A stretch of 64,000 bases of DNA from NCBI GenBank assembly GCA_028707875.1, contig JAQWAC010000001.1, forward strand, positions 13,829-77,828, given 5' to 3'. This DNA is from Candidatus Peribacteraceae bacterium. Its GTDB lineage: Bacteria; Patescibacteriota; Gracilibacteria; Peribacterales; Peribacteraceae. The notes below the pieces were generated by a model. The model was not told where the DNA came from. It saw only the letters and a list, made by a program, of their open reading frames with translations, and searched no databases. The position numbers and the translations under genes are program-made. This document shows, piece by piece, positions 15,424 to 49,278 of the stretch; positions within the stretch are counted from its first letter, which is position 1, and each line of letters starts with the position of its first letter.

Positions 15424-15621
15424 AAACGTATCCTACCATTGTACCACAAAATCCACTCATTCAGTAGGGAGTGATATGCCGTTCTTTGGCATCCCTCAGT
15501 CATTCTTCAATGTTTCTAATGTGAGTATTCGTTGGAGTAACTGCAAGTTTCTACTTTTCAATAATGCGCGAAGACAAGCTTTGCTTGTCTGGAGCGCCTC
15601 CTCTAAAGGGAAAGGATAGCT

Positions 15622-16892: not shown

Positions 16893-16930
16893 AAAGCGAG
16901 GGGGAAGGGGATAGGGCGTAGGGCGTAGGG

Positions 16931-19099: not shown

Positions 19100-20506
<1,407 letters not shown>

Positions 20507-20555
20507 GGTGCCGCTACGTTAGCGGAGACAAAGAAAAATGGCTATCACCCTCATG

Positions 20556-20664
20556 AGCACGAAGAGCGAAGTGGAAAGTGCCATAAGTGGAAAGTATTCT
20601 TCGTGCTGATTCTCAGCTGATTTGCTTTCCACTTCGTCACTTTTCCGCTTCCCACTTCTTCCGG
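20556..20664. repeat. word-periodic imperfect hairpin (GAAGTGGAAAG words), element D
   Basis: Arms 20560-20594 and 20625-20664. The reverse complement of the right arm, CCGGAAGAAGTGGGAAGCGGAAAAGTGACGAAGTGGAAAGC, is homologous to the left arm of element E. Confidence 0.65.
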
Positions 20665-28565: not shown

Positions 28566-28648
28566 ACGAGAGATGAGTGTACCAGTCGTCATGTGAGTTG
28601 AGAAGGGTCGATTGGGATTTACATAAGAAGAAATGCGCGTGCAGCACG

Positions 28649-28674
28649 CAGCTGGGGTTCACGAACCCCAGCTG
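28649..28674. other. perfect 9-bp hairpin CAGCTGGGG-TTCACGAA-CCCCAGCTG upstream of hisS
   Basis: Read directly. An adjacent second hairpin is GCGTGC-A-GCACGC (28636-28648). Confidence 0.5.
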
Positions 28675-28920
28675 TAGACTTCGTCTTGGAACTCTCTTAT
28701 GCGACGGCGTGCACCGCATCGGCCACCTGCGCGGAACATGATGTGATGAATCGTCGCGTAGCTTCCTGATTTGACGAGGTCTCATCCACTGCAAAGGTGC
28801 CGTCGGCATGGCGTCTGAGCGCGACGCCGCGTGGCACTTCGCGCTGATTCACATAGGCGACCTCATCGCCGGTGCGGATAGGGAGAATATTGACCATGAG
28901 ATAAAGGGGGAAAAATGGGT

Positions 28921-28951
28921 AAAAAAGAAAAAACCCTCGGGTGAGCGAGGG
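28921..28951 (-). terminator. rho-independent terminator (minus strand)
   Basis: The minus strand reads CCCTCG-CTCACC-CGAGGG followed by TTTTTTCTTTTTT. Confidence 0.7.
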
Positions 28952-29312
28952 CTGATTCGCAAGTTGGAAATTGTCTACACCAACTCACGCCCTCGCAACG
29001 AGTGCATCATCATGTGCATCATGCCGAAGGAGTGGGACTGCTGAATCACGGGCGCAGTGTAAGCCGAGTTCGGCTTCTGTCAATGGAATAGTGGGGAGTG
29101 GGCGCAGCAAGATTACTATTTGTTTGGGGTGAGGATGAGGGTGGGTTTTCGAGGGAACAATCAATGGAAGGCGGGGATGAATATCTGTGCAAAGAACAAG
29201 GTATCAACGGGAGAGGTGTAATGGTTTCCCGGTACTCGCCCCAAGCCCTTGCACATTACAGGATCATACGTGAAGGGCTGGAGCGAAATTCCGGGCGTAG
29301 TGACGCCTTCGA

Positions 29313-30197
29313 TCATGCCGCGTGCTCATGGGAATGAGCCTGTGACAATGCCGTTCTTACAATTTCATTGCGTCGTTCGCGAACGTATTCCCAGATCATT
29401 GCCTCCACCAATTCCGTCGCCGATACAGAATCGATATTTACTTGCGAAGGCGGAGTCACTTCCCTCCCTCCCGATCCCCATGCACTCGAGCGTCTTGCCA
29501 CCGCAAGTCTACTGAGGGAATCGCGGTCGGCATTTGCAGCCCAGAGAACAAAGCGTGCACGTTCCGCGTCTATGAGCTGTCGCACATCATAGCGAATGCC
29601 AATGTCGTCGCCCCAAGGATTTTCATCGATTTCTGTCATTTCCGTGAACGGGTGAAGGTCATGGGTAGCGACAGAAATATCTGTCCCCCGACGAGTCACA
29701 ACGCCGACACGCGCTCTTTGCCACTCATTCAATCGCGTGATCACTGCATTCATACAGGTCTCAATTCTGGTTTGAATTTCCCCCTTCTCTCTTCTGTTGT
29801 AATAACGAGATTCTGCTCCGCCATCGATCAGTATCACACCCCCGGGATCGATACCGAGGAAGCCGGGGAGTTGCTGCGTCCCCTCTGGCACGATGTAACT
29901 CGGGGGAAGATCGTGCATGGCGGCAGATGTGCCAGACGTATCACCATGAGCCAAGACGCCGACGCGTGCTCTTTGTCCTTCAAGTAATCTCTCGGTCACT
30001 GTTCTAAGAAAGATATGGATTCTCGCCTGAATCAATGCTTGGTTACAGAATTCAGATTCTTCTCCGGGGTCGATCAGTATCACCCCTCTGGGATCGATGC
30101 CGACAAATTCAGAGAGCTGTTCCACCCCTTGTGGTACGACGTAGTTCGGTACGGGTGGTTGTCCGGGGATGCCGTTGATTGTTTCGGGACTATTCAT
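29313..30197 (-). CDS. hypothetical protein with an internal ~85-aa tandem duplication
   Basis: Repeat 1 is PNYVVPQGVEQLSEFVGIDPRGVILIDPGEES...QRARVGVL. Repeat 2 is PSYIVPEGTQQLPGFLGIDPGGVILIDGGAES...QRARVGVV. No family recognised. Confidence 0.6.
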   Translation of the reverse strand: MNSPETINGIPGQPPVPNYVVPQGVEQLSEFVGIDPRGVILIDPGEESEFCNQALIQARIHIFLRTVTERLLEGQRARVGVLAHGDTSGTSAAMHDLPPSYIVPEGTQQLPGFLGIDPGGVILIDGGAESRYYNRREKGEIQTRIETCMNAVITRLNEWQRARVGVVTRRGTDISVATHDLHPFTEMTEIDENPWGDDIGIRYDVRQLIDAERARFVLWAANADRDSLSRLAVARRSSAWGSGGREVTPPSQVNIDSVSATELVEAMIWEYVRERRNEIVRTALSQAHSHEHAA

Positions 30198-30290
30198 AAT
30201 TAAATTGGGAAAGAAATATGCTCATATCATTTGCGCAGAGAGCCTCTGAGATGAAATATCTATAAATAATTGCTATAAATTAATATTATA

Positions 30291-30299
30291 TGTTATATT
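30291..30299 (+). promoter_or_regulatory. extended -10 (TGTTATATT) 6 nt upstream of the ATG: candidate leaderless promoter
   Basis: TG at 30291-30292, TATATT at 30294-30299, ATG at 30306. AT-rich divergent spacer. Confidence 0.35.
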
Positions 30300-30305
30300 C
30301 ATAAC

Positions 30306-30965
30306 ATGATTACTCTCACGGATGTCCTTCGGGACATTATTGCCGATAACCCGTTCCTGCAGTTCGGGATACAGAAACGGATCTTCAATCTCTCGAGTCT
30401 CAGTCGAGAACTGCAACCGCAGGTCGAAATTCGAGCCAAGAAGGATGTGCGCAGCAGTGCAATCCTGATGGCATTATCACGCCTGCAGCGTGCGGAGCAG
30501 AAAAAAGTTCCCCAACGTGAGCAAATTCATGCCAAGAGTGTCACTATTCAAACAGGTCTTTCGATTTACACGTTTACAAAAACAAAAGATGTCCATAAAG
30601 GCATGAATATGCTTTTCATCGAGCTGCAAAAGAACAATGGTTACATCACGATTTGTGAAGGAACTCAGGAAATTACCATCCTGCTGGATAGCGCGCATGC
30701 ACATCGTGTGAAGCATTTCATGCCCCAGCAGCCAAAATATCATCAAGATCGTCTTGCGGCGCTTGGCCTTTCGTTCGATGAGAAACTGTACCTGCCGACG
30801 CCAGGGATGATTTACCTTGTTCTTCAGCAGCTCATGCTGCAGAGCATCAACCTCATTGAAGTATCATCGACTTACACGGAACTGACGCTCTATGTCGCTG
30901 AACAAGACGCGAAGCTTGCATTTGAAACGCTCTATCGGCTCATTAATGCCGGAAAAGATTTTTAA
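30306..30965 (+). CDS. hypothetical protein (weak ACT-like C-terminal region)
   Basis: 219-aa ORF in a lower-GC stretch. The ACT-like assignment is only an impression from GMIYLVLQQL...IEVSSTYTELTLYV. Confidence 0.6.
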   Translation: MITLTDVLRDIIADNPFLQFGIQKRIFNLSSLSRELQPQVEIRAKKDVRSSAILMALSRLQRAEQKKVPQREQIHAKSVTIQTGLSIYTFTKTKDVHKGMNMLFIELQKNNGYITICEGTQEITILLDSAHAHRVKHFMPQQPKYHQDRLAALGLSFDEKLYLPTPGMIYLVLQQLMLQSINLIEVSSTYTELTLYVAEQDAKLAFETLYRLINAGKDF

Positions 30966-30990
30966 TGAAAAAGAATAACCAATGATGGAG

Positions 30991-31105
30991 TGGGGCGAGC
31001 GAAGGGTTTCGAACCCTCGATCCCGCGTCTGCGGGAGCCACAACTTGGCGTTTATTATTCATTCGCCACAGCATACTGCGGCGTGGCCAACTGAGCTACG
31101 CCCAC
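30991..31105 (-). pseudogene. degenerate 115-nt tRNA-His-like copy
   Basis: Its 3' terminal 30 nt (T-arm, acceptor, CCA) are identical to the tRNA-His, as are 17 nt of the 5' acceptor/D region. It keeps the TTGTGGC loop string, but the D-stem and anticodon-stem partners are missing and about 37 extra nt are inserted. No G-1. Confidence 0.5.
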
Positions 31106-31129: not shown

Positions 31130-31207
31130 TGGGGCGAGCGAAGGGTTTCGAACCCTCGACCTCCAGGGCCACAACCTGGCGCTCTAACCAACTGAGCTAC
31201 GCCCGCC
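31130..31207 (-). tRNA. tRNA-His (GUG) with encoded G-1 and CCA
   Basis: GGCGGGCG-TA-GCTC-AGTTGGTTA-GAGC-G-CCAGG-TTGTGGC-CCTGG-AGGTC-GAGGG-TTCGAAA-CCCTT-CGCTCGC-C-CCA folds as a cloverleaf. G-1 pairs with C73. Confidence 0.9.
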
Positions 31208-31253: not shown

Positions 31254-33563
31254 TTATGCCGATTTCTTCCGATCATCGGAGATATTGTCCGCGCGAATGA
31301 TCGCGATGGTGCTGTCCGTCGCCTCGCCTGTCGGTGCCGGAGGTGTGACAGGAGATTTTCCGGGGTGTGTTTCCGACTTCGCGGGTGCGGCGGGTGCCGG
31401 CGGTTTCGGTACAGCAGGCTCGGCGATCGCCTGTTCCTCACGGATCATTTCCTGTTCCAGATCATCGGCTTCCGATTCCGCGGATTTTTGTGCGGTATCG
31501 GTTGCAGAGGGTGCGGCGGATCCCGCCGCTTTTTCCTCCTGTTCGCGCTTTCGCTTGTTCGTCTTGTAGCGTTGTCGCTTCTTCTTTCTGCGCTCCCTCT
31601 CCTCGGGCGAAATTTCCTGTACCGGAGATTGAGTCTGGGACGGAGTAGGAACAGCCGGTGATGCGGTGATTGCAGAAACCGGTGACGGTTCCGAAGGAGG
31701 CAACGAAGATTGCGCCGGAGGCGCACCGGCCGGTTCGGGCGGGTTCGCGGGTTTCACAACTTGTGGCGGGGCGACCGGCTCGGGAGCCGGAGTCATGGCG
31801 GCGATCACCGGCGGCGGGGGAGGGGCAGTCGGTTCCTGAACGGGCTCCGGAGACGGGTGAGGAGCGGATGCCTGTGCAAGCCAGGGGGGAATGGAAGCAT
31901 CATTGTCGGACGAAGAAGCAGCAGGGGGAGGAATCGATTCTGTGGCCGTCATCGATGTATTTCCCGACGGAGGAGTGGAAGGCGGAGGAGGGGGCGGTGA
32001 CGAAGGCGTCTCTTCCTGCAGCGTCGGGGGAGGAGGTGTGGTGAATGTGTGTCCGGAACGCGTCGCTTCCTCATGCGCCTGTTTGAGCCAACTGGGAGCC
32101 TGGTTTTCATCAAATTGCAGGGTCGATGGCGGTTCAACGGACGAAATCTCTTCCACCTTCGGCACCTCCTCCGCAGGCGCTCTCTCCGCCTTGGGCGTCC
32201 TTCGCACGGGGGCCTCTTCTTCACGCATTGCGGAGACATCGATCACCGGCATCGGAGGCGCATGATCGAGTGACGAAGACTTTCGCTCTCCGGACGCGGT
32301 GCGGCTCTTCTGCGGTGTGGTGGGGGTTTTGTCCGTATCGAGATTGCGCTTCACGATTCGTGCGATGATGAACATCGCCATGAATCCGAGAATCAGGGAG
32401 GCGATCACCACGAGCAGAATCACGCCGATGGTTCCCCACATTCCGCTTGGAACACCCGTTGCGGCTACGCTTGATTGAGCCGAGGATGCGGCGGAGGAAG
32501 ATGAGACGGACGAAGCGGATTGTCCCGAGGAGGAGGCACTGCCCGTTTCCCCCGAGAGAACAGATGTGACTTGAAGGGCGCCGCCGGTATCAAGAACGTT
32601 TTGTGCCGTCTTCAGATCCCGCACCGTGAGTCGCACGGTGTAGGAGTTGTTTTTCGAGAAGGTGTGCATCGGACGGTCGAGCATGCTCTGCCGTCCGTCC
32701 CCGAAGTCCCAGAGGAAGAGGAGTGCGCGCCCGGATGCGGTGAGTGCGTTTTCTTTCAGGGAGAAACCGAAGACGCCATTCCCGCGGTCATCGACGGCAA
32801 TGAGAGGGGTGCCACCCGAATTCGGAAGCGAGGGGGTGGAATCGGGACGGGGAACCGTGACGGCGGCGGTCGTGACACGCAGCGTCTGTGCGGTCGTTCC
32901 CTGCGCCCCCATGCTCATGATGGTGATCGTTCTGTCCGTGGAGAATTCCGGGAACCAGATCCGGAGAGGTGTTCCGTCGGTGAGGAAGAACGTTCCTTCG
33001 TCATCCGTATCGTTGGAGGGATTTCCGTCCCGATTGTTGTCGATGGTATGGTCCAGATCGAGCGAGAGGCGTGCGGTGCCCGGAGAGAGTGGTGAGAGGA
33101 GAATCGTCTGCTGGTTTCCCAGAACAACATTGTTTCCTTCCTCGACGGGCGGGTCGGTCCGGACTATCGGCGTCCCCGTCATGATGCCTGGTGTCGAGGG
33201 AAGCGGAAGAGCCGCGGAACTCACGTGAATGAAAAATGTGCGCACCAGCATCGCCGGAGACGCGGCGTTTCCCACTTCGGCTTTCAGCGAGAAATTGCCC
33301 GTTTCGACGAACCGTTCATGGAAGATCCGTCCCCGGTCCGCCTGCACGAATGAGCCGTCCTCCTTCAGGAGCGTCCAGGAAACGGATGAATCCGTGCCGG
33401 GCAGAGCTGCGAGGATCTCGAAAATGGAACCGACGCTGAGGGTGATGTCCTCTGTCGTGCTTGTCGAAGCGGCGGAAGCGCCACCTGCAAAGAATGTCGT
33501 GAAGAGCAGCCCGGCGAGAATGACGGGAAGGGGGAGCCGATGGCGAAGGCGCGAGAAAATCAT
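31254..33563 (-). CDS. single-pass membrane protein: extracellular PKD/Ig-like domains, Ser-rich linker, TM, long Pro-rich plus Lys/Arg/Glu-rich tail
   Basis: Signal peptide MIFSRLRHRLPLPVILAGLL. PKD signature LWDFGDG...YTVRLTV. TM WGTIGVILLVVIASLILGFMAMFII. Tail has PPPPPP runs and EERERRKKKRQRYKTNKRKRE. An alternative GTG start at 33587 overlaps the upstream pilin stop (GTGA). Confidence 0.8.
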   Translation of the reverse strand: MIFSRLRHRLPLPVILAGLLFTTFFAGGASAASTSTTEDITLSVGSIFEILAALPGTDSSVSWTLLKEDGSFVQADRGRIFHERFVETGNFSLKAEVGNAASPAMLVRTFFIHVSSAALPLPSTPGIMTGTPIVRTDPPVEEGNNVVLGNQQTILLSPLSPGTARLSLDLDHTIDNNRDGNPSNDTDDEGTFFLTDGTPLRIWFPEFSTDRTITIMSMGAQGTTAQTLRVTTAAVTVPRPDSTPSLPNSGGTPLIAVDDRGNGVFGFSLKENALTASGRALLFLWDFGDGRQSMLDRPMHTFSKNNSYTVRLTVRDLKTAQNVLDTGGALQVTSVLSGETGSASSSGQSASSVSSSSAASSAQSSVAATGVPSGMWGTIGVILLVVIASLILGFMAMFIIARIVKRNLDTDKTPTTPQKSRTASGERKSSSLDHAPPMPVIDVSAMREEEAPVRRTPKAERAPAEEVPKVEEISSVEPPSTLQFDENQAPSWLKQAHEEATRSGHTFTTPPPPTLQEETPSSPPPPPPSTPPSGNTSMTATESIPPPAASSSDNDASIPPWLAQASAPHPSPEPVQEPTAPPPPPVIAAMTPAPEPVAPPQVVKPANPPEPAGAPPAQSSLPPSEPSPVSAITASPAVPTPSQTQSPVQEISPEERERRKKKRQRYKTNKRKREQEEKAAGSAAPSATDTAQKSAESEADDLEQEMIREEQAIAEPAVPKPPAPAAPAKSETHPGKSPVTPPAPTGEATDSTIAIIRADNISDDRKKSA

Positions 33564-33583
33564 GGGAAAGGACCGGTTCCCGG

Positions 33584-33928
33584 TCACTTGATGCTGAGCA
33601 CGAAGTTCACAATGGCCGATGCGAGCATGATCACGAGGAGGCCGACAATGGTATAGATAATCATCTTCTTTCCCGTTTGCTTCACCTGCTCGTTTCCGAC
33701 GATGATGGCGATACCTGCGAAGATGATCATGGCGACGGCAAGAATCGCCACGAATGTCAGGACTTTCTGGACGATATTGATGATGGTTGTCTTGAGGTTG
33801 TCGCCGCTTCCACCGACTTGTATTCCGCCCGCATCACCGATGCTGATCGCAGCGAGGGCGATGCGCGGGATAAATACGAGGGTGAATGCGCAGAGGCGCA
33901 ACCAGGCGTGATGGAAAAAGTGTCTCAT
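33584..33928 (-). CDS. TrbC/VirB2-like T4SS pilin family protein, paralog C
   Basis: Signal peptide, short exposed segment, two TM helices. IINIVQKVLTFVAILAVAMIIFAG...KKMIIYTIVGLLVIMLASAIV. Confidence 0.75.
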   Translation of the reverse strand: MRHFFHHAWLRLCAFTLVFIPRIALAAISIGDAGGIQVGGSGDNLKTTIINIVQKVLTFVAILAVAMIIFAGIAIIVGNEQVKQTGKKMIIYTIVGLLVIMLASAIVNFVLSIK

Positions 33929-33932
33929 ATAG

Positions 33933-34283
33933 TTATGAAACGAAGGAGAGAACAAGGGCGACGATTGCTTTGGAAAGCAGGATGATGAGGAGGCCGATCA
34001 CAGTATAGATGATCATCTTCTTCGCCTTTTCCTTGGAGCTTTCATCGTACGATCCCACGATCATCCAGACACCGGCGAAGATGATCATGGCAACGGCAAG
34101 CAGAGCCACATACGTGAGGACCGTATTGACGATCTTGGTGATGGATGCTTTCAAATCCCCGCCGCCCCCCACATTGATCTCCCCCGCACCTCCGAGCGTC
34201 GACGCTGCAGCGACGCGTGGAACGGTTATGAGCGTCAGTGCGCAAAGACGTGCCCACATTCGGGAGGAAAACACCTTCTTCAT
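33933..34283 (-). CDS. TrbC/VirB2-like T4SS pilin family protein, paralog B
   Basis: ITKIVNTVLTYVALLAVAMIIFAG...KKMIIYTVIGLLIILLSKAIV. Start at MKKVFSS (34283). Confidence 0.75.
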   Translation of the reverse strand: MKKVFSSRMWARLCALTLITVPRVAAASTLGGAGEINVGGGGDLKASITKIVNTVLTYVALLAVAMIIFAGVWMIVGSYDESSKEKAKKMIIYTVIGLLIILLSKAIVALVLSFVS

Positions 34284-34284
34284 G

Positions 34285-34689
34285 TTATTCGGCAAAGGAA
34301 ATAAAGAGGGAGACGATTCCTTTTGAGAGGAGAATGATGAGAAGTCCGATACCGGTATACAAGATGACCTTCTTGGCCGTTTCTTTCGCCTGGTCATTGC
34401 CGAAGCTGACGATCATATAGAAGCCGGCAAAGATAATGACACTCACGGCGATGATGGCGACGTAACTCAGGACCGTGTTCACAATTTTCCCGATCACCGC
34501 ACGGGGGCTCCCGCTTTTCACTCCCTGGATGTTTTCTCCCGCATTGATTCCAGCTTCCAATCCTCCGCTGTACACGGCGGCGGAGAGATGTTCGAATTCC
34601 GGCGCGACCTGAACGGCCGAGAACGCGAGCGCCGCGATGAAAAACATGACGGAGAGCAATGATCGCATGGGAGATGAGGTGGTTGTCAT
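34285..34689 (-). CDS. TrbC/VirB2-like T4SS pilin family protein, paralog A
   Basis: IGKIVNTVLSYVAIIAVSVIIFAG...KKVILYTGIGLLIILLSKGIV. Confidence 0.75.
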   Translation of the reverse strand: MTTTSSPMRSLLSVMFFIAALAFSAVQVAPEFEHLSAAVYSGGLEAGINAGENIQGVKSGSPRAVIGKIVNTVLSYVAIIAVSVIIFAGFYMIVSFGNDQAKETAKKVILYTGIGLLIILLSKGIVSLFISFAE

Positions 34690-34751: not shown

Positions 34752-35759
34752 ATGCGTCCGATTCAGCCAAAAACGGCCTTGAGACGGGCAGACAACCTGT
34801 CTGCATTATTGATAACAAACCTCATCAATATTCGTTACCTCACGGGGGTCGATGTGAGTGCGGGGGCCATGCTCGTGACGCCGCGCAGCTGGCGCCTCTT
34901 TGTGGATGCCCGGTATGGGGAAATGGCGCAATCCCACATTCGAACGGGAATAAAAGTGGAAGAGCGGGAATTATTGGCACGATTTCTTGAGTCCGTTCCT
35001 CTGTGCGGTTGCGAGGAGGAGACGGTGACGCTTGCGCAATATAGGCGATGGAAGAAGAATTTTAAGAACACAAAATTTGTTCAATTATCCGGAATGATTG
35101 AGGACTTCCGGCGATCCAAAGACACGGAGGAGCTCAGAAAGTTCAGAAGGGCCCAAAAGATCACGCAACAAATGCTCACGAGAGTTCCCGCAGTGCTTCG
35201 ACCGGGAATCACGGAGCGTGCTCTTGCCTGGAAACTGACGGAGTGGGCGCACGAACTCAAGGCCGACGGACTCGCATTTGAGCCCATTGTCGCCTTCGGG
35301 CCCCACACGAGTCGTCCGCATCATCATGCGACTGATCGGGAATACAGGGAGGGCGATCTTGTGCAGGTGGATACCGGTGCGCGTTTCGGCGGCTACTGCG
35401 CGGATCAGAGCAGGGTGTTTTTTACGGGACCGAAAACTTCCGAGCAGGCGCATGTGTTTCAAGCGGTCGAGGAAGCGAAGGATGCAGCGACAAAAATGGT
35501 GCGTGCGGGGGTCGGGACGCACGAGCTCGATCGAGTCGCGCGCGCGGTGTTGAAGAAACACGGGCTTGAAAAGTATTTTGTGCACTCGCTCGGGCACGGC
35601 GTCGGTCTGGAAATCCATGAGGGGGTGACTTTGAGTCAGAAGCGCCCGAACGAAAAACTTCTGAAAAACGAAATCATCACCATCGAGCCGGGCGTGTATC
35701 TCCCGGGGAAATTCGGGATGCGTCTCGAAGATGAGATTGTGGTGGAGAAAGAAGGTTAA
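34752..35759 (+). CDS. Xaa-Pro aminopeptidase (M24 family)
   Basis: DLVQVDTGARFGGYCADQSR, HSLGHGVGLEIHE, IEPGVY, RLEDEIVV. Confidence 0.9.
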   Translation: MRPIQPKTALRRADNLSALLITNLINIRYLTGVDVSAGAMLVTPRSWRLFVDARYGEMAQSHIRTGIKVEERELLARFLESVPLCGCEEETVTLAQYRRWKKNFKNTKFVQLSGMIEDFRRSKDTEELRKFRRAQKITQQMLTRVPAVLRPGITERALAWKLTEWAHELKADGLAFEPIVAFGPHTSRPHHHATDREYREGDLVQVDTGARFGGYCADQSRVFFTGPKTSEQAHVFQAVEEAKDAATKMVRAGVGTHELDRVARAVLKKHGLEKYFVHSLGHGVGLEIHEGVTLSQKRPNEKLLKNEIITIEPGVYLPGKFGMRLEDEIVVEKEG

Positions 35760-35865: not shown

Positions 35866-37287
35866 ATGATGACCGGAAAAATGCACATCCACAGAACACC
35901 TCTCCATCGGCCGTGCCGCGCTCCGGTCCCTCTGCACATTCGCGTCCTTCTCGTTCTGATTTCCGTGTTCGCTCCCGTGATGGCGGTGGGCGTGAGTAAG
36001 AATGCGGCCCATGAGCAGGAATTTATCATCACGGCGTACTATTCGCCGGTTCCCGGTCAGTGTTGTTATGTCATGGGCGGTCTGCAGGCGGACAAAGTAT
36101 TGAACGGAAACGGAGTCCGCGGCGCCGACGGGACCGAAGTGCATCCGGGCATGATCGCGGCACCCGCGAGCTACGCATTCGGCACGGTTGTCGTGTTACC
36201 GGGAGTCGGACGCTTCACGGTTCACGACCGCGGCGGGGCGATTCAGGAACTCGATTCGGGCGCGCATCGTCTGGATATCTGGGTGGGCTACGGCGAAGAA
36301 GGATTGGCGCGCGCCCTCGCGTTCGGCGTGCAGCATATCCGCGGGACGGTCTATCCCGTCGGGGGCAATCAGCCGAAGGAGAAGTTTGTGATGGAGAATC
36401 TTCCGGCAGTCATCGCGCGTCTGCGACCGTTCCAAGTTGCCGGGAATTCCCTGCTTTCGGTGACGCCGCGGAGCGGAGAACAAGGTCTCTCCGTTGAGCT
36501 TCTGCAACGTTCCTTGAAGGATGCGGGGTACTTCTCCCAGCGCGTCACCGGAAAATTCGGATCGACGACAGCGGAAGCTCTGCGTGCATTCAACGATGCA
36601 TTCGGTCTCTCGAATGAACCGTCGGATCGTCTTTCGGAGAAGAGTGCCGCCACACTCACGGCCGCGGTGCAACGCATCGCCGCCCGCCCTCCGGTGCAGA
36701 AAGCCGTTGATAAAACCGCATCGGCCCAGGCGATACGCTCCGCCCAGAGGACACTCCGGTTCCTCGGCTTCTACAGCGGACGAACCAACGGTACCTATGA
36801 TGACAATCTGTTTGACGCCATTCTTCGATTCCAGCAGAAGAAAGGTCTTGTCGGGTCGGCGGAGAATGCCGGAGCGGGACGTATCGGTCCGCTCACGCGC
36901 GGCAAGCTCACCGAATCATGGGACAGAAGGATTGTCGCTGCGATGGCCCGGCGTCTTCTGGCACTGCATCGCGTGGAAACGGTGCTCGATGAACGCGGAA
37001 AAAACGTCGCACGTTTTCTCGAAACGGGTGACAATGGCGATCAGGTGGCGCTTCTCCAGCGTCTCCTCTCCGATCGCGGATTCTTCCCGTCGGAAAAAAT
37101 CAACGGGAATTACGGTGCACTCACACAGTCGGCCGTCCTGAAATATCAGATGGCCCGCAAACTCATCACATCCGAGAGCGATGCGGGTGCGGGGCAGGTG
37201 GGGCCGCTGACGCTCAGAGCACTTCGTTCCGAGGAGCGCAAAGAGTTGTATTTGCTCGTGCGCAGTGAAGGATGGAGGGCGCTATAG
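35866..37287 (+). CDS. secreted 3D-domain (MltA-like barrel) protein with three peptidoglycan-binding (PG_binding_1-like) repeats
   Basis: ITAYYSPVPGQ...GADGTEVHPGMIAAP...HDRGGAI...LDIWVG, then three repeats of the type GDxGxxVxxLQxxLxxxGxxxxxxxGxxGxxTxxAV. Confidence 0.8.
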   Translation: MMTGKMHIHRTPLHRPCRAPVPLHIRVLLVLISVFAPVMAVGVSKNAAHEQEFIITAYYSPVPGQCCYVMGGLQADKVLNGNGVRGADGTEVHPGMIAAPASYAFGTVVVLPGVGRFTVHDRGGAIQELDSGAHRLDIWVGYGEEGLARALAFGVQHIRGTVYPVGGNQPKEKFVMENLPAVIARLRPFQVAGNSLLSVTPRSGEQGLSVELLQRSLKDAGYFSQRVTGKFGSTTAEALRAFNDAFGLSNEPSDRLSEKSAATLTAAVQRIAARPPVQKAVDKTASAQAIRSAQRTLRFLGFYSGRTNGTYDDNLFDAILRFQQKKGLVGSAENAGAGRIGPLTRGKLTESWDRRIVAAMARRLLALHRVETVLDERGKNVARFLETGDNGDQVALLQRLLSDRGFFPSEKINGNYGALTQSAVLKYQMARKLITSESDAGAGQVGPLTLRALRSEERKELYLLVRSEGWRAL

Positions 37288-37357: not shown

Positions 37358-38398
37358 ATGCAGAAGTTCATTCTGACACTCCTCGTATTTACCGTGTGCG
37401 TTCCTGCGGTTTCCGCCGCGGAAAATGTCTCACGTCGTGACGGATTTCTTCTCCTTTGGGAGGGGATTGCCCGCAGTGCGGATGAGACGAGGGAGAAGCC
37501 GTTCACCGACGTTCCGGGAGGGTCGGGGGGCTTTACGGAAATCACGTACGCCAAAGCACGCGGACTCATCGATGACGGAGAGAGTTTTCGTCCGGAGGAT
37601 TCTCTGACACTCGGCGACGCTCTGCTCTGGCTTTTCAGAACACGAAATGTCGATGATATCGACGCCATGACGCCGGAATCGCTTCCGACACTGCTCGGCA
37701 ACTATCCGATTGCGGGTCAGGATGCGGAAACGGACGAACCGGTTGGAACTTCGGAAAAACTGCTTGCCTTAGCGAATAAACTGGACACGATGCTCGCGGA
37801 GGAGGTGCATGAAGTGAGTCTGTATTCGGAGAAGTTCCACGGGAAGGGGACGGCCTTCGGCGAGTCGTTCGACATGTACGCACTCACTGCGGCACATCGC
37901 ACCTTCCCCGCGAACACTCTCGTGAAGGTGACGAATGTGGAGAACGGCAAGAGCGTCATTGTGCGCATCAATGACCGCGGCCCGTACGTGGAAGGTCGCG
38001 ATATGGATCTGAGTCTGGCGGCCTTCACGATGATCGCACCGCGCGGACAGGGAGTCGCACGGGCCCGCTTCCAGCGACTCGGGGATGCATCTCTCGTGGA
38101 TGCCTGCACGGGGGAGACGCGTCGCTATCAGAAACGCATCACGCGTGACGTGCGTTTTCATCGCGGAGTGCCGTGGAAATCCGCCATCGGCGAACCGCTC
38201 GTGCTCGGGGCCAATCGTCCGTTCGTCGTTCGCGATGTCACCTATCCGGACGGGACCGTTGAGTGGTTTGAGGATTGGATCCTTCCCGAGGAGGCCTTCA
38301 CGTTGACCGCTTCCATCCCGGGAATCTACACATTCCGTTTCTCAAACGGAACGGGGCATACACGCAAAATGCAGATGGAGATGTGGCAGTGTCGATAA
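37358..38398 (+). CDS. RlpA-like double-psi beta-barrel lytic transglycosylase with N-terminal SLH-like segment
   Basis: YSEKFHGKGTAFGESFD, TAAHRTFPANTLVKVTNVENGKSVIVRINDRGPY. Signal peptide present. Confidence 0.8.
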   Translation: MQKFILTLLVFTVCVPAVSAAENVSRRDGFLLLWEGIARSADETREKPFTDVPGGSGGFTEITYAKARGLIDDGESFRPEDSLTLGDALLWLFRTRNVDDIDAMTPESLPTLLGNYPIAGQDAETDEPVGTSEKLLALANKLDTMLAEEVHEVSLYSEKFHGKGTAFGESFDMYALTAAHRTFPANTLVKVTNVENGKSVIVRINDRGPYVEGRDMDLSLAAFTMIAPRGQGVARARFQRLGDASLVDACTGETRRYQKRITRDVRFHRGVPWKSAIGEPLVLGANRPFVVRDVTYPDGTVEWFEDWILPEEAFTLTASIPGIYTFRFSNGTGHTRKMQMEMWQCR

Positions 38399-38660: not shown

Positions 38661-41330
38661 ATGCCCAAATCTGCTATAATTATTCGAATTCTTCTCTATC
38701 CTTTTGATCGAACCCATTTGATTCCATTCCTCGACATCGCATTCTGGCCTCTCCTCTGGATCGCTGCCGCAGCGATCGGCACTGCGACAGTGCCGGATTT
38801 CTGGGGATCCGTCGGGGGATGGTATATGTCCGCGCCACTGCGGAACACCGGCATCATTATTCTTACGTATCTCGTGTGGAAGTGGTGTAAGTGGAACTTT
38901 CGCTATGTCTACGCTGTCTACCGGTCGCGAACACTCGTGACGATGAAGATTCTTCTTCCGCGTTCGGATTCCAAGATTGATCAGGAAAAAAGGACGGAGA
39001 AGGACTTCAAGGAGAAAGTGGCCGCCATGGAGCAGTTATACCGTGCACTCTGGGAAGTACAGAGCCTCACCTTCTGGCAGGAACTGCATTACTGGTTCTT
39101 TCAGTACCTCACGATCAGTCTGGAGCTCTATGTGGAGAAGAACCAGCTCATGCTCTACGTCGTCACACAACCGAGTCTCGTCTCCGTCGTGGAGAAGCAG
39201 ATTACCGCCTTCTATCCTGCGGCGGAGGTGACCAATCATCCGACGCCCAATCTCTGGCCGAAGGGACTCAAGTTCATCGGATACAACATGATTCCCGGAA
39301 AATCCTTCATGTACCCGATCCGGAGTTATGAGCACATGCAGGACGATCCGCTGAACGGCATTGCAAACGTTCTCAGTAAAATGGAGGAGGGGGAGACGGC
39401 GGGGGTCCAGATTGTGCTTTCGCCGTCTTCTGAAAAAAAGTGGGGCAGGCGCACGAAGCACTTCGCATCCGAAAAATTCAAGGGGAAGAGCGAGAATATG
39501 TTCAGTCATATTCCGATTCTCGGATCGCTTCTGACAGTGCTCGGAGGGGTGGCGACGGGGACCGAAGGCTCATCGTTCGCTCCCGGCGCGACCAAAGGCG
39601 ATTCATTTGTCCGCATGATTCAGCCTGAGGAGGAGCTCTACAAGCGCATGGGCGAGAAGGCCGGCATGAGTTACTTCTTCGCTTCCGTGCGCATCGCCGC
39701 CGCCGCCAAGACGTGGAAGCGCACGTTTGAGATCACGAACAACCTTCAGGTCGCATTCAACGCCTTCAAAGATGTCTACGGCAACTACTTCCAGAATCGA
39801 CGCATGTTCGTGGATTTCTTCCCGCTCTCACTCAATGCGCCGATCATTTACTCGCTCTGGAAGCAGCGCATCAATGGATTCTGGCATCGGCGTTCTCTTC
39901 TGGTTGAGAAGGAACTGGCGGCCCTCTACCACTTCCCGGACAGCCGCTACAACAAGATGCCGATCATCGAGTGGATCACCTATCGCGTCCTTCCGCCGCC
40001 GCCCAATGTGCCCGCCGAAGGCATTGTCATCGGTGTCAGCAAATTCCGCGCGCAGGAAACGAAGATCCGTTTCATGGATACGGATCGCACGCGTCACCAT
40101 TACATCATCGGAAAATCCGGAACGGGAAAATCCGCGCTGCTCTCATGGATGAGCCGTCAGGACATCGCCCACGGCGACGGCGTGTGCATGGTCGATCCGC
40201 ACGGAGACCTCATCGAGGATGCGCTCGCCCATACGCCCAAAGAGCGTGCGAAGGAGATCGTGCTCTTCGATCCGGCGGACGGCGAGCGGCCGATGGGTCT
40301 GAATCTTCTGGAGGCCAAGACGCCCGAGGAGAAGGATCGCGCCGCCATCGATGCGATGGAAATCTTCATCAAGCTCTTCGGAAACGAAATCTTCGGTCCG
40401 CGCATTCAGCACTACTTCCGCAACGGTTGTCTGACGCTCATGGACGACGAGGAGGAAGGTGCGACGCTTATCGATGTGCCGAGGCTGTTCGTGGACGACG
40501 AGTTCCAGCACTTCAAGGTCGCCAAGTGCAAGAATCCCGTGGTGCGGAGCTTCTGGGAGCACGAGATCGCCAAGACCGGTGCACGCGAAAAAGAGGAGAT
40601 GATCCCGTACTTCTCCGCGAAGTTCGGGCCCTTCATCACGAATACGACGATGCGCAACATCATCGGACAGCCGAAGAGCGCCTTCAACATCCGCGAGATT
40701 ATGGACACGGGCAAGGTGCTCCTCGTGAACCTCTCCAAGGGGAAGATCGGCGATGTCAACGCGCAGCTTCTCGGCCTCATCTTCGTGAACAAGGTGAACA
40801 TGGCCGCGCTCTCCCGCGCCGATGTCCCGCGCGAGAAGCGTCGCCGCTTCTACCTGTATGTCGACGAATTCCAGAACTTCGTGACGGATGCCTTCGCCAC
40901 GATCCTGTCGGAGGCACGCAAGTACGAACTCGGTCTGATCATGGCGCACCAGTACATCGGGCAGCTCGTGGGGAAAACGGAGTCGTACGGTCAGGCGAGT
41001 ACCAAAATGCGCGATGCGGTCTTCGGTAACGTCGGCACGATCTCCAGCTTCAAGATCGGCGCGGAGGACGCCGAGTACATGGCCAAGGAATACGCGCCGG
41101 ATCTCTCCGAACAGGACGTCATCGGCATCCCGAACTTCAATTGCTACGTGAAGCTTTCCATCAACAACGTCCCCTCGCGTCCCTTCAGTATGGCGACGAT
41201 CTGGGACGAGTCGGACCGCAACGAGGAGCTCGGGGCACTGATCAAGGAATACAGCCGCATGAAGTACGGCAGGAAGAAGGTCTTCGTCGATCAGGAAATT
41301 GAGGATCGCATCGGGATCGTGAGAGGTTGA
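38661..41330 (+). CDS. membrane-anchored VirD4/TraD/TrwB-like P-loop ATPase (T4SS coupling-protein-like), paralog 2
   Basis: Several N-terminal TM segments, Walker A (HHYIIGKSGTGKSA), MVDPHGDLIEDAL, Walker B (FYLYVDEFQNF), AHQYIGQL. In the 81-aa Walker-A stretch I aligned by hand, 53 positions are identical to paralog 1. Confidence 0.8.
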   Translation: MPKSAIIIRILLYPFDRTHLIPFLDIAFWPLLWIAAAAIGTATVPDFWGSVGGWYMSAPLRNTGIIILTYLVWKWCKWNFRYVYAVYRSRTLVTMKILLPRSDSKIDQEKRTEKDFKEKVAAMEQLYRALWEVQSLTFWQELHYWFFQYLTISLELYVEKNQLMLYVVTQPSLVSVVEKQITAFYPAAEVTNHPTPNLWPKGLKFIGYNMIPGKSFMYPIRSYEHMQDDPLNGIANVLSKMEEGETAGVQIVLSPSSEKKWGRRTKHFASEKFKGKSENMFSHIPILGSLLTVLGGVATGTEGSSFAPGATKGDSFVRMIQPEEELYKRMGEKAGMSYFFASVRIAAAAKTWKRTFEITNNLQVAFNAFKDVYGNYFQNRRMFVDFFPLSLNAPIIYSLWKQRINGFWHRRSLLVEKELAALYHFPDSRYNKMPIIEWITYRVLPPPPNVPAEGIVIGVSKFRAQETKIRFMDTDRTRHHYIIGKSGTGKSALLSWMSRQDIAHGDGVCMVDPHGDLIEDALAHTPKERAKEIVLFDPADGERPMGLNLLEAKTPEEKDRAAIDAMEIFIKLFGNEIFGPRIQHYFRNGCLTLMDDEEEGATLIDVPRLFVDDEFQHFKVAKCKNPVVRSFWEHEIAKTGAREKEEMIPYFSAKFGPFITNTTMRNIIGQPKSAFNIREIMDTGKVLLVNLSKGKIGDVNAQLLGLIFVNKVNMAALSRADVPREKRRRFYLYVDEFQNFVTDAFATILSEARKYELGLIMAHQYIGQLVGKTESYGQASTKMRDAVFGNVGTISSFKIGAEDAEYMAKEYAPDLSEQDVIGIPNFNCYVKLSINNVPSRPFSMATIWDESDRNEELGALIKEYSRMKYGRKKVFVDQEIEDRIGIVRG

Positions 41331-46770: not shown

Positions 46771-46886
46771 GTGCGGTACGCAGAACCAAGTATGCAGTAC
46801 GCAGGGGCTTTGGAGAAACGGTTGTTAGGGAAAACAGAGGTTTCCGCTCTGTATACTGAATACCGTATACCGTATACTTTCCGTGC
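46771..46886. repeat. word-periodic imperfect hairpin (GTACGCAG / CGTATAC words), element G
   Basis: Left arm GTGCGGTACGCAGAACCAAGTATGCAGTACGCAG. Right arm TGTATACTGAATACCGTATACCGTATACTTTCCGTGC. The arms place CATACT (minus strand) and TATACT (plus strand, 46873-46878) upstream of der and leuS. Confidence 0.5.
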
Positions 46887-46887
46887 A

Positions 46888-49278
46888 ATGGAACCATCTT
46901 TCAACCCGACCATCATCGAGGATAAGTGGCAGAAGAAGTGGGAGGAAGCCAGGATCTACGAAGCGGATCTGAAGAAAGCCAAGAATCCCTTCTACGCGCT
47001 CGTGATGTTCCCGTACCCGAGCGGGGACAAGCTCCACGTGGGGCACTGGTACAACTTCGCTCCGGCGGACAGTTACGCGCGCTTCATGCGGATGCACGGG
47101 AAGGATGTCATGGCGCCCATGGGCTTCGATGCATTCGGGCTGCCTGCGGAGAACTATGCCATCAAGAGCGGCATCCATCCGGACACGTCCACGCGCAGTA
47201 ACGTGCAAACCATGGTGAAGCAGCTGCGACGTATGGGCTGCATGTACGACTGGTCCAAGATGGTGAACACGTCCACGCCCGAGTACTACCGTTGGACGCA
47301 GTGGCTCTTCCTCCAGATGTACGAGCGCACGTTGGCTTACAAGAAGGAGGCGCCGGTGAATTTCTGTCCGAGTTGCCAGACGGTGCTGGCCAATGAGCAG
47401 GCGCAGGACGGCAAGTGCGAACGATGCGGGACAGAAGTGATCCAGAAGAACCTGAGTCAGTGGTTCTGGAAGATCACGGATTATGCCGAACGGTTGCTGA
47501 ACGGTCTCGAGGATCTGGACTGGCCGGAAAAAACCAAGATCATGCAGAGGAACTGGATCGGGAAGAGCGAAGGAGCAGAGATCACGTTTGATATCGTCGG
47601 TCACGATGAGCGGATCACCGTCTTCACCACGCGCCCCGACACGCTCTTCGGCGCCACGTATATGGTCTTGGCTCCGGAGCACCCGCTGGTGGAGAAGATC
47701 ACGCCCAAGTCGCACTGGGGCGCTGTGCATGCATATCGTGAGGGAGTGAAGAAGAAGACGGAACTCGAGCGGACAGATTTGGCAAAAGTGAAAACCGGCG
47801 AACCGACGGGCGCGTTTGCGGTCAATCCCGCGACGGGCGAGGAGATTCCCATCTGGATTGCGGACTACGTGCTCTCCACGTACGGAACCGGAGCGATCAT
47901 GGCGGTGCCGGCGCATGACGAACGCGACTTCGCATTTGCCAAAAAGTTCAACCTGCCGATCAAAGAAGTGGTGGCGGGAGGAAATGTGGAGGAGGCGGCC
48001 TTTTGCGACGAGGGCCCTGCGGTGAATTCGGAATTCCTGAATGGACTGAAAACCTCCGATGCCAAGAAGCGCATGATCGCGTGGCTGGAGGATGCGGGGA
48101 AGGGGAGGGAGCGGACCACGTACCGACTCCGTGACTGGCTGGTCAGCCGCCAACGGTACTGGGGCGCGCCGATTCCCATTGTCTACGATCCCGAGGGGAA
48201 ACCGCATCCGGTTCCGGAGAAGCATTTGCCGTGGCTGCTTCCGGATGATGTGGAGTTCAAACCGACGGGCAAGTCTCCGCTCATGGAGAGCAAGGAATTC
48301 ATCCGCCGCACCGAGAAGATCTTCGGCAAAGGGTGGACGCCCGAGTTCGATACGATGGATACCTTCGTTTGCAGCAGCTTCTACTACCTCCGGTATCTGG
48401 CCGGGGGTGACGAGAAGCGCATTGTGGATCCAACGATTGAGCGGAAGTGGATGCCGGTGAGCATGTACATCGGCGGACCGGAGCATGCGTGCATGCACCT
48501 GATCTACGCACGATTTGTGATGATGGCACTCAAAGATTTTGGCTTCGTGTCGCATGAAGAACCGTTCAAAAAATTAGTTCACCAAGGTCTGATCACCCAC
48601 AAGGGGGCCAAGATGAGCAAGAGCAAAGGCAACGTCGTGAGTCCGGACAGCTTCGTGGACCGCTACGGGTCCGATGTCTTCCGCATGTACCTGATGTTCA
48701 TGGGTCCCTTCACCGACGGAGGGGACTGGAATGATCTGGGGATCAAGGGGATTGATCGCTTCGTGAGGCGCTTGTACGCGCTTTGCACGGAGAGTGTGAA
48801 TAAAAAAGTAGATCAACAGAAAGTCATTGCGACCGTGCATCGGACGGTGAAGAAAGTCACGAGAGATATCGGGGAAATGCACTTCAACACCGCCATCTCC
48901 GCGCTCATGGAACTCCTCAATCTTCTGGAAGAGGAAGGGGGAGTGAGCAAGGAATCTGCGAAGACCATGGTCCTTCTGCTCGCTCCGCTCGCCCCGCACC
49001 TGAGCGAGGAGCTCTGGGAAGTTCTCGGCGGGAAGGGCTTTGTGATCGAGCAGCACTGGCCGCTCTTCGAGGAAGCACTCACCAAAGAGTCGATGGTGGT
49101 TCTTGCGATTCAGGTGAACGGGAAAGTCCGCGGCGAGATCGAGGTGGAGGCGAATGCCGCGAAGGACGATGTTCTCGCGAAAGCGAAGGAGCACCCGAAT
49201 GTGCACAAGTTTCTGGAGGGAATGGTTATTAAGAAGGAAATATATGTACCTTGTAAATTAGTTAGTATTGTTGTTTAA
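46888..49278 (+). CDS. leuS: leucine--tRNA ligase
   Basis: PYPSGDKLHVGHWYNF (HIGH region), editing domain, GAKMSKSKGN (KMSKS). Start at MEPSFNP (46888). Confidence 0.95.
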   Translation: MEPSFNPTIIEDKWQKKWEEARIYEADLKKAKNPFYALVMFPYPSGDKLHVGHWYNFAPADSYARFMRMHGKDVMAPMGFDAFGLPAENYAIKSGIHPDTSTRSNVQTMVKQLRRMGCMYDWSKMVNTSTPEYYRWTQWLFLQMYERTLAYKKEAPVNFCPSCQTVLANEQAQDGKCERCGTEVIQKNLSQWFWKITDYAERLLNGLEDLDWPEKTKIMQRNWIGKSEGAEITFDIVGHDERITVFTTRPDTLFGATYMVLAPEHPLVEKITPKSHWGAVHAYREGVKKKTELERTDLAKVKTGEPTGAFAVNPATGEEIPIWIADYVLSTYGTGAIMAVPAHDERDFAFAKKFNLPIKEVVAGGNVEEAAFCDEGPAVNSEFLNGLKTSDAKKRMIAWLEDAGKGRERTTYRLRDWLVSRQRYWGAPIPIVYDPEGKPHPVPEKHLPWLLPDDVEFKPTGKSPLMESKEFIRRTEKIFGKGWTPEFDTMDTFVCSSFYYLRYLAGGDEKRIVDPTIERKWMPVSMYIGGPEHACMHLIYARFVMMALKDFGFVSHEEPFKKLVHQGLITHKGAKMSKSKGNVVSPDSFVDRYGSDVFRMYLMFMGPFTDGGDWNDLGIKGIDRFVRRLYALCTESVNKKVDQQKVIATVHRTVKKVTRDIGEMHFNTAISALMELLNLLEEEGGVSKESAKTMVLLLAPLAPHLSEELWEVLGGKGFVIEQHWPLFEEALTKESMVVLAIQVNGKVRGEIEVEANAAKDDVLAKAKEHPNVHKFLEGMVIKKEIYVPCKLVSIVV

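Follow-up and report, generated by a model that had tools for sequence, protein, structure and literature searches.

A chromosomal VirB2-like pilin array with a PKD-domain partner protein in Peribacterales

Introduction

What might a small tandem array of VirB2-like pilin genes assemble on the chromosome of a monoderm bacterium, and does it have a partner? The question is raised by a four-gene operon in a 64-kb stretch of DNA, hereafter the window, from contig JAQWAC010000001.1 of a Candidatus Peribacteraceae bacterium (order Peribacterales, which we take to be placed in the class Gracilibacteria following GTDB). Three genes of the T4SS_pilin family, here called pilA, pilB and pilC, are followed in this operon by pkd, which encodes a membrane protein with a PKD domain and a long proline-rich tail.

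Tandem VirB2-like arrays have already been described in Patescibacteria, a group that goes by the further name of Candidate Phyla Radiation (CPR), in work from 2023 to 2025, and the triplet in the window fits among them. A survey that used the same Pfam models reported 441 arrays of 2–11 genes in 383 Patescibacteria assemblies, with identity between paralogues averaging 25% and reaching a maximum of 54% (PMC12102498). Southlakia epibionticum has an array of six pilins without which it cannot grow epibiotically. The type IV secretion systems (T4SSs) of Patescibacteria are described as not conjugative, and most are without relaxases; those of the class Gracilibacteria have their genes dispersed, and no VirB6 was found there (PMC12102498). 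The role of the T4SS in Patescibacteria has been called ‘completely unknown’ (PMC11665869), with a pilus as a possibility only (PMC12857230). An array is thus essential in the one species tested, yet the same large survey of Patescibacterial T4SSs detected no adhesins such as PrgB and reported no partner (PMC12102498).

The present study identifies the locus as the Peribacterales version of the Patescibacterial VirB2-like pilin array, a chromosomal pilA-pilB-pilC-pkd operon possibly extending to a tRNA-His gene. What appear to be new are the pairing of pilins with a PKD protein throughout the order, a conserved pair of pilin types (A and C), fused pilins or “polypilins” at the locus, and conserved motifs in the tail of the PKD protein. 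Neither a PKD partner nor fused pilins are mentioned in the 2025 survey, and no Peribacterales entries were found in its supplements (PMC12102498).

Results

The operon consists of four co-directional open reading frames (ORFs) that run from 34689 to 31254 on the minus strand, with coordinates confirmed by an ORF call of the window and with intergenic gaps of 1, 4 and 20 nucleotides. The first gene, pilA (34285-34689, minus strand), encodes a type-A pilin of 134 amino acids that groups with the first-gene pilins of relatives, while pilB (33933-34283, minus; 116 amino acids) and pilC (33584-33928, minus; 114 amino acids) encode type-C pilins and start 1 and 4 nucleotides past the preceding stop codons. 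An earlier note on this DNA, made by reading the letters without database searches, had described three tandem genes for proteins of about 115–135 amino acids with gaps of just these sizes, and that description holds. For the fourth gene it had offered two starts, a GTG overlapping the pilC stop (GTGA) or a later one 21 nucleotides on, with a product of 770 amino acids. The GTG at 33587 stands as an alternative, and the later start, an ATG at 33563, lies 20 nucleotides past the stop and gives 769 amino acids (31254-33563, minus); this start agrees with the gene call on record and with the N-termini of 16 homologues in an alignment. Homologues of the PKD protein are 714–876 amino acids long and all come from Peribacteraceae/Peregrinibacteria. 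The nearest pilins, too, bear the names Candidatus Peribacteraceae, Peribacter or Peregrinibacteria, which marks the DNA as that of a CPR bacterium. Because orthologues of the pilin and PKD genes are found in more than 30 independent assemblies of the same order, these ORFs are real genes and not chance reading frames. A six-frame search with hidden Markov models (HMMs) revealed no additional pilin paralogues in the 64 kb. A gene for tRNA-His(GTG), found with ARAGORN at 31130-31206 on the same strand, lies 47 nucleotides 3′ of pkd, keeps its position and strand in 11 related loci, and may be co-transcribed with the operon; no promoter-like sites were detected in a scan of the operon, where terminator-like matches were uninformative.

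Patescibacterial VirB2 pilin arrays are defined by at least two tandem VirB2/T4SS_pilin genes on a chromosome (Quinonero-Coronel et al. 2025), and here there are three, all adjacent. All three products match Pfam PF18895 (T4SS_pilin) above its gathering cutoff of 26.6 bits, at 33.2 bits for pilA, 33.5 for pilB and 36.9 for pilC, and PF18895 is also the precomputed family of pilC. Matches to PF04956 (TrbC/VirB2) were significant by E-value and below the cutoff of 27.9 bits for pilC (27.8 bits, E 2.9e-6) and pilB (24.9 bits, E 2.4e-5), and there was none for pilA at E<=1. The sole NCBIfam match of all three is NF045849, the Mbov_0395 pilin-like conjugal transfer protein, at 32.8, 27.7 and 22.1 bits, below the 40-bit cutoff. 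The VirB2/TrbC-like identity proposed in the earlier note is thus upheld in the form of membership in T4SS_pilin, a relative of the TrbC/VirB2 family; the HMM comparison that it had suggested supports all three genes for PF18895, and for TrbC gives pilB and pilC matches that are significant by E-value but under the cutoff. When all 1.84 billion representatives were scanned with HMMER, 21,875 members of the family were returned. Members from Patescibacteria, Peribacteraceae among them, bear database names such as ‘TrbC/VirB2 family protein’ or ‘pilin’.

Topology was derived from hydropathy together with AlphaFold helices. On the Kyte-Doolittle scale each pilin has an N-terminal hydrophobic leader, of Sec type, and two transmembrane (TM) segments, and the AlphaFold model of pilC, built from a 76-sequence alignment, has helices at residues 3–26, 42–77 and 80–113, of which the last two form a hairpin with a predicted local distance difference test score (pLDDT) of about 90, and a disordered loop after the leader helix. 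The signal peptide and two TM helices anticipated for each protein are therefore present. In pilA the leader is followed by an exposed loop (AVYSGG...), TM1, a cytoplasmic loop of basic character (GNDQAKETAKK) and TM2. Being Lys-rich, and conserved in alignments, the loop of the hairpin should lie on the cytoplasmic side, with both mature termini outside. Having both mature ends outside is the topology known for VirB2-type pilins, and as predicted from their sequences the three window pilins share the VirB2-type layout of a leader, two hydrophobic helices and a short basic loop.

Pilin units at the locus cluster into two orthologous types that stand side by side throughout Peribacterales: type A, encoded by the first gene, has the mature end AQVYNGPG, and type C, encoded by the second, has LGD-A-EINVGGGGDLK. 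Identity between the window paralogues is 38–56%, the upper value being that of pilB and pilC over their full length. Duplication of type C is otherwise found only in the closest relative, L001, which has two copies, and pilB, which groups with pilC and with both L001 copies, is a recent lineage-specific duplicate of pilC. In seven independent metagenome-assembled genomes (MAGs) one ORF with 2, 3 or 7 tandem units takes the place of separate pilin genes (L024 7976-10006, protein P0027; L014 9036-9977; L027 9030-9962; L031 4535-5482; L032 8892-9974; L016 9333-9968; L025 9230-10009). Internal units of these polypilins are without a leader and are separated by Gly/Ser/Thr linkers. Across the whole family many of the top matches carry 2–16 units, up to the 16 of P0047 (1775 amino acids). 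Fusion of paralogous units argues for joint action in one assembly. Among the hypothetical proteins of Candidatus Altiarchaeales archaea, P0049 (OYT27652.1) and the P0073 cluster (MCK4491598.1) have about 10–11 tandem T4SS_pilin-like units, so that concatenated members of the family are not confined to Bacteria. Between the PG-binding and M24 genes of three Peribacterales genomes there is also a distinct third type of pilin, absent from the window (L018 7701-8084, L019 7679-8029, L023 6939-7394).

A search with the PKD protein across 185,579 species genomes gave 29 loci, all in Peribacteria-type MAGs or in genomes labelled only Patescibacteria or bacterium, and wherever upstream sequence is available one or more pilin genes immediately precede the PKD gene. 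Three look-ups made in the other direction, from pilins, all led to this arrangement as well. The survey of synteny that had been recommended thus showed the pair to be invariant across Peribacterales, in more than 30 loci. In other CPR lineages pilin arrays of seven genes adjoin TrbL/VirB6-like and CHAP genes, as in L036 with two TrbL/VirB6-like genes and a CHAP hydrolase, or stand alone, and none has a PKD partner.

The PKD protein begins with a signal peptide (33471-33563, minus; MIFSRLRHRLPLPVILAGLLFTTFFAGGASA followed by A), assigned by rule from hydropathy and an AXA site. The ectodomain (32559-33470, minus) comprises three beta-sandwich domains recognized from AlphaFold model m0365f0e3cec2, Pfam and invariant alignment columns, with bounds in the model at residues 35–115 (D1), 134–231 (D2) and 255–332 (D3, the PKD domain); pLDDT is 85–90 for D1 and D3 and 60–80 for D2, which has a conserved Asp-rich loop, DxDxNGDGDPxNDxD, in a 17-member alignment. 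The PKD assignment is given by PF00801 and PF18911 at residues 282–330 (42.4 bits against a cutoff of 23.5 and 40.5 bits against a cutoff of 27; E 7e-11). Foldseek matches of the model were generic tandem Ig/FN3/PKD proteins only, among them receptors of the cell surface, an S-layer protein, fibres of phages and the base of the GhpA grappling hook. A Ser-rich low-complexity stalk (32448-32558, minus; pLDDT below 50, 24% Ser in residues 351–400) separates the PKD domain from the membrane and is found in all homologues without conservation of sequence. A single TM helix, that of a type-I membrane protein, follows (32337-32447, minus; hydropathy 3.05, AlphaFold helix 376–409) and is succeeded directly by RIVKRNLD, and because the RIVKR residues come right after the helix the positive-inside rule places the proline-rich tail in the cytoplasm. 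Extracellular PKD/Ig-like domains and one TM helix, as first read from the translation, are accordingly supported by the PKD match, the model and hydropathy. A sortase-substrate reading of the protein was rejected: no LPXTG was seen before the TM helix on reading the sequence, Pfam and NCBIfam found only PKD, and the helix is followed by a 360-residue tail rather than a short basic stub.

The cytoplasmic tail (31257-32336, minus; 360 amino acids) is mostly disordered on the evidence of hydropathy, alignment and AlphaFold, has a Pro content of 20% that rises to as much as 34% in 50-residue windows, and has no Pfam, NCBIfam or PDB sequence match. The earlier note had foreseen an extremely Pro-rich tail of about 370 residues with a Lys/Arg cluster at its end; the tail is confirmed, and the basic cluster, at residues 653–680, lies about 90 residues before the end. 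Alignment of 17 family members, then extended to 31 non-redundant loci, defined a set of motifs. Nearest to the membrane is APPMPVIDV (32235-32261, minus), with P437 invariant and M438 nearly so, whose family form APPMxVIDV is present in most members. A PxWL motif (APSWLKQAHEEA; 32085-32096, minus), in which A489, P490, W492 and L493 are invariant, leads into a short helix (residues 491–502, pLDDT 70–77), and a second copy, IPPWLAQ (31878-31889, minus), has P559, W561 and L562 invariant. Across the family PxWL occurs 78 times, with 2–6 copies in each full-length tail and its P, W and L invariant, and it was found in none of the other 46 window ORFs tested (~18,000 amino acids). In a subset of members the PxWL motif is followed by an amphipathic helix, G-x-[ED]-[EK]-A-E. 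PxWL may resemble the C-terminal peptide of FtsZ, a likeness offered as a lead and not counted as a finding. Further on is a basic helix, ERERRKKKRQRYKTNKRKRE (31524-31607, minus), with ten invariant residues from R656 to E674, a modelled helix at 653–680 (pLDDT 77–87) and a core, KRxRYRxN, that most family members have. Last is a C-terminal motif, DSTIAIIRADNI (31281-31316, minus; IAIIRAD), with D750, A754, I756, R757 and A758 nearly invariant and the pattern [IV]A[IF][IV]RA[DE] in many members.

A role for the PKD protein as an adhesin-like partner, as first suggested, is plausible. Identity to the nearest relative, L001, is 83% for the ectodomain compared with 65–72% for the pilins, and such slower evolution is not expected of a rapidly adapting adhesin; the most distinctive conserved features are in the cytoplasmic tail, which suggests more than a passive adhesin.

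The surroundings are ordinary chromosome, with genes for class II ribonucleotide reductase, YchF, EF-Ts, S2, gyrB, hisS, leuS, dnaG, rpoD and ftsK, and with even GC content across the window. Scanned with Pfam, none of 51 ORFs across the window showed a relaxase domain. Diverging from the pilin operon, with 62 nucleotides between start codons, is an M24B Xaa-Pro peptidase (34752-35759, plus strand; Pfam Peptidase_M24 and Creatinase_N) that adjoins the pilins in nearly every related locus. It is followed by a protein, either secreted or anchored in the membrane, that has three PG_binding_1 repeats (35866-37287, plus; Pfam, synteny, and weak NCBIfam matches to SleB and peptidoglycan hydrolases), which may remodel the cell wall, and by an RlpA-family (DPBB) lytic-transglycosylase-like protein (37358-38398, plus; Pfam DPBB_1, TIGR00413 rlpA at 116 bits against a cutoff of 82, and synteny). 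About 4 kb from the pilins is a VirD4/TraD-like coupling ATPase, or type IV coupling protein (T4CP), of 889 amino acids (38661-41330, plus; TrwB_AAD_bind 39.6 bits against a cutoff of 20.5, T4SS-DNA_transf 27.5 against 20.1), with a hydrophobic segment at residues 20–45, an N-terminal extension of about 450 residues, DUF8128 recorded on orthologues, and synteny in about 25 loci. A second, paralogous T4CP lies at 12943-15423 (minus) and also has an N-terminal TM anchor; the extensions of the two are about 400–450 residues and neither gene adjoins virB4. Two such genes in the window agree with the report of about two T4CP genes per Patescibacterial genome, usually distant from virB4 (PMC12102498).

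Content of the stretch from tRNA-His to hisS (window 28600-31100) differs between genomes (L002, L004, L005, L006). Relatives have there a serine recombinase overlapping the tRNA end (L004), GIY-YIG genes and HicB/ParE toxin-antitoxin modules, and the stretch looks like a tRNA-associated integration hotspot. The window has in this position two ORFs without a family match (29313-30197 and 30306-30965), the first of which (minus; 294 amino acids, no Pfam or NCBIfam match) contains an internal duplication (VPQGVEQLSEFVGIDPRGVILIDPGEESEF / VPEGTQQLPGFLGIDPGGVILIDGGAESRY). Elsewhere in the window, an unusual wall-anchored sortase (10335-11522, plus) combines S-layer homology (SLH) repeats and a sortase domain in one protein, and EF-Ts (16116-17354, minus), taken as the longest ORF, has 412 amino acids with an N-terminal extension of about 150–220 residues, part of which is rich in Pro (22% around residue 98). 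Very long ORFs antisense to the T4CP, a class II aminoacyl-tRNA synthetase, the ribonucleotide reductase and leuS (13012-15474, plus; 19190-20620, plus; 4997-6607, minus; 46825-48555, minus) are probably not genes but shadow ORFs, of the kind to be expected in DNA of 56% GC; 13012-15474 and 19190-20620 were scanned and had no family match.

Discussion

On balance we think it somewhat more likely than not that type-A and type-C pilins assemble together into a pilus or conduit of T4SS type, that the PKD protein accompanies this structure through the wall with a tail recruiting an oligomer, probably a T4SS ATPase, and that the whole serves interaction with a host rather than conjugation. The two pilins would be inserted N-out/C-out in the cytoplasmic membrane and, in fixed partnership, would form one heteromeric pilus or pilus-like conduit across the monoderm wall. 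As a dedicated partner, the PKD protein could extend its Ig-like stalk through the wall beside the structure, as an anchor or contact sensor, while its multivalent PxWL, basic-helix and C-terminal motifs would recruit a cytoplasmic oligomeric factor, for which the most plausible candidates may be T4SS ATPases, either the T4CP 4 kb away or a VirB4 elsewhere in the genome. Host contact or exchange is suggested by analogy with Saccharibacteria, in which an array is essential for epibiotic growth.

Several observations weigh against this proposal. The TrbC score is slightly below the curated cutoff, and when hydrophobic helices match one another composition can easily bias the result. When the pilin model was compared with PDB by Foldseek, the best E was 0.4 and the top 50 included no pilin, although short hairpins are poorly resolved by such comparison; a pilin profile against PDB sequences found nothing but a spurious match to a G-protein-coupled receptor (E 7); and tblastn of pilC against 72,556 plasmids gave no match, which argues against a recent plasmid origin and tells little of remote homology. 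Because these more direct links to solved pilins failed, ‘pilin’ is here a family assignment and not a demonstrated function. VirB4, VirB3 and VirB6 were not found in the 64-kb window in the Pfam scans. Gene order in the whole region of about 20 kb, with hisS and gyrB, is shared throughout Peribacterales, so that the T4CP and wall enzymes may lie nearby through inherited synteny rather than as a functional cluster. Finally, no monoderm bacterium, of the CPR or otherwise, has been seen to bear a T4SS-type pilus (PMC12857230).

The main rival explanation is a membrane-embedded complex that never forms a filament, which we regard as rather unlikely. The pilins could instead form a heteromeric ring or channel of helical hairpins in the membrane with the PKD protein as its co-receptor, for example as a T4SS without a pilus, at its membrane stage, or as an unrelated transport or signalling complex. 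This would be consistent with polypilins, since 7–16 covalently linked two-TM units would be hard to extract into a pilus, with the lack of VirB4 and VirB6 nearby and of a structural match to solved pilins, and with Gram-negative T4SSs, which need pilin subunits even when they make no pilus (PMC12857230). However, such homology as there is, though weak, is to pilus subunits, and polypilins might be cleaved after each TM2. In solved conjugative pili, moreover, the N- and C-termini of VirB2-type pilins are close together and some pilins are cyclised, so tandem linkage is not incompatible with a filament.

Another explanation could be that the PKD protein is functionally unlinked, a surface protein or receptor of general function that spans the wall and just happens to lie beside the pilins in a collinear region, and this we consider improbable. 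The order-wide synteny of the 20-kb neighbourhood would allow for it, as would the generic Ig/FN3 character of the Foldseek matches and the existence of other CPR arrays without such a partner. It would not easily account for the closeness of the pair within that neighbourhood. Almost everywhere the block has the T4CP, RlpA-like DPBB, PG-binding and M24B genes on one strand and the pilin or pilins, then pkd, on the other, and the spacing from pilin to pkd, on the same strand, is −4 to +19 nucleotides in all seven called loci. The pair has insertions to either side of it, and other points of the block have taken up an M20 peptidase, a transposase and one gene of no known kind, yet none was found between pilins and pkd in the loci compared; and there is the pilin directly upstream of every PKD homologue for which upstream sequence is available.

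It has been proposed for the VirB2 arrays of Bartonella and Anaplasma that paralogous pilins are interchangeable subunits for antigenic or host-range variation, and the idea has been raised for CPR arrays (PMC12102498). Here it seems a slightly poorer prospect again, and we judge it unlikely given the few genes, the conserved loops and the fusions. The recent duplication of pilB could be read in its favor, as could the exposed loop, the most divergent region between types with an identity of 0.28. Within a type, however, loop identity is 0.52–0.60, little less than that of the TM helices (0.60–0.73), only one to three genes are present, and the same two types in the same gene order persist across Peribacterales. 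Fusion into one polypeptide, for its part, forces co-expression and excludes alternative use. The ‘composite or variable’ filament of the earlier note therefore survives in its first term, with A and C types conserved side by side and sometimes fused, and not in its second, with one to three genes or two to seven fused units and conserved loops. Very improbable, and largely refuted, is an integrated conjugative element with pilins for a mating pilus, for although T4CP-like ATPase genes, tRNA-His beside the operon and the recombinase downstream in L004 could hint at one, Pfam scans of the window found no relaxase and no VirB4, the locus is flanked by housekeeping genes, GC is even across the window, plasmids gave no match, the locus is conserved vertically in more than 30 genomes of one order, and the variable DNA lies beyond the tRNA and not around the operon. 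That the structure is not a conjugative pilus, as first suggested, fits this housekeeping setting, the 51 ORFs without relaxase, VirB4, VirB3 or VirB6, the order-wide conservation, and the published view of Patescibacterial T4SSs (PMC12102498).

A more specific and quite tentative possibility, one we would not expect to hold but do not think far-fetched, is that the PKD protein represents a new Peribacterales-specific class of T4SS accessory, an Ig-like transmembrane coupler that spans the wall and physically connects the heteromeric A+C pilus or conduit on the outside with secretion ATPases on the inside, by multivalent docking through PxWL. If this were true, polypilins of 2–16 units, found also in Altiarchaeales, would show CPR-type VirB2 structures to be ordered hetero-oligomers and not built of a single major pilin. 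No member of the lineage is in culture, only one order has the partner, and function is predicted from sequences and models. The locus nevertheless provides handles in a co-inherited TM partner with an Ig stalk, defined tail motifs, a two-type pilin pair and natural fusions, and these yield testable predictions on hetero-assembly and on the link between pilins and the cell interior.

The locus can be compared with several known systems. Bitopic single-pass proteins of the VirB10/TonB type have a long Pro-rich region and in concept link the cytoplasmic side to the envelope. The PKD protein resembles them only in its single pass, its long Pro-rich segment and its T4SS context; no homology was detected, the topology is opposite, with the folded N-terminal part outside and the Pro-rich part inside, and the folded part is Ig/PKD rather than beta-barrel. 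Like PrgB of pCF10, among the Gram-positive T4SS adhesins, it is a surface protein encoded with T4SS genes in a monoderm and could mediate contact with a target cell. It shares no sequence or domain similarity with PrgB, is anchored by a TM helix and not through LPXTG and sortase, and differs from adhesins of that type in its slow-evolving ectodomain and in a 360-residue, motif-bearing cytoplasmic tail, which they lack.

The pilins, for their part, resemble the Mbov_0395-family protein of Mycoplasma integrative conjugative elements (NF045849) as small two-TM pilin-like proteins of a wall-less or monoderm T4SS, but the Mycoplasma protein is element-borne and conjugative whereas the window pilins are chromosomal and order-wide, with scores of 22–33 bits against a cutoff of 40. 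With Gram-negative VirB2/TrbC/TraA pilins they share a size of about 115–135 amino acids, a long leader, two hydrophobic helices, a basic loop and a weak but significant TrbC similarity; they differ in belonging to a monoderm, in a TrbC score below the cutoff, and in having no structural or BLAST-level match and no nearby VirB5, VirB6 or VirB4. Closest are the arrays of other Patescibacteria, such as the six-pilin array of Southlakia epibionticum ML1 and the ‘Sec-secreted array’ of TM7x, which are likewise chromosomal tandem PF18895/PF04956 paralogues in monoderms with no relaxase (PMC12102498, PMC12857230); the identity of the window paralogues, 38–56%, is near the maximum of 54% reported for such arrays. 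Compared with these, the window array is small, with three genes, and does not lie beside virB4, virB6 or virB3; and it is set apart by two pilin types that are orthologous across the order, by polypilins at the same locus in relatives, and by its constant companion, the bitopic PKD protein.

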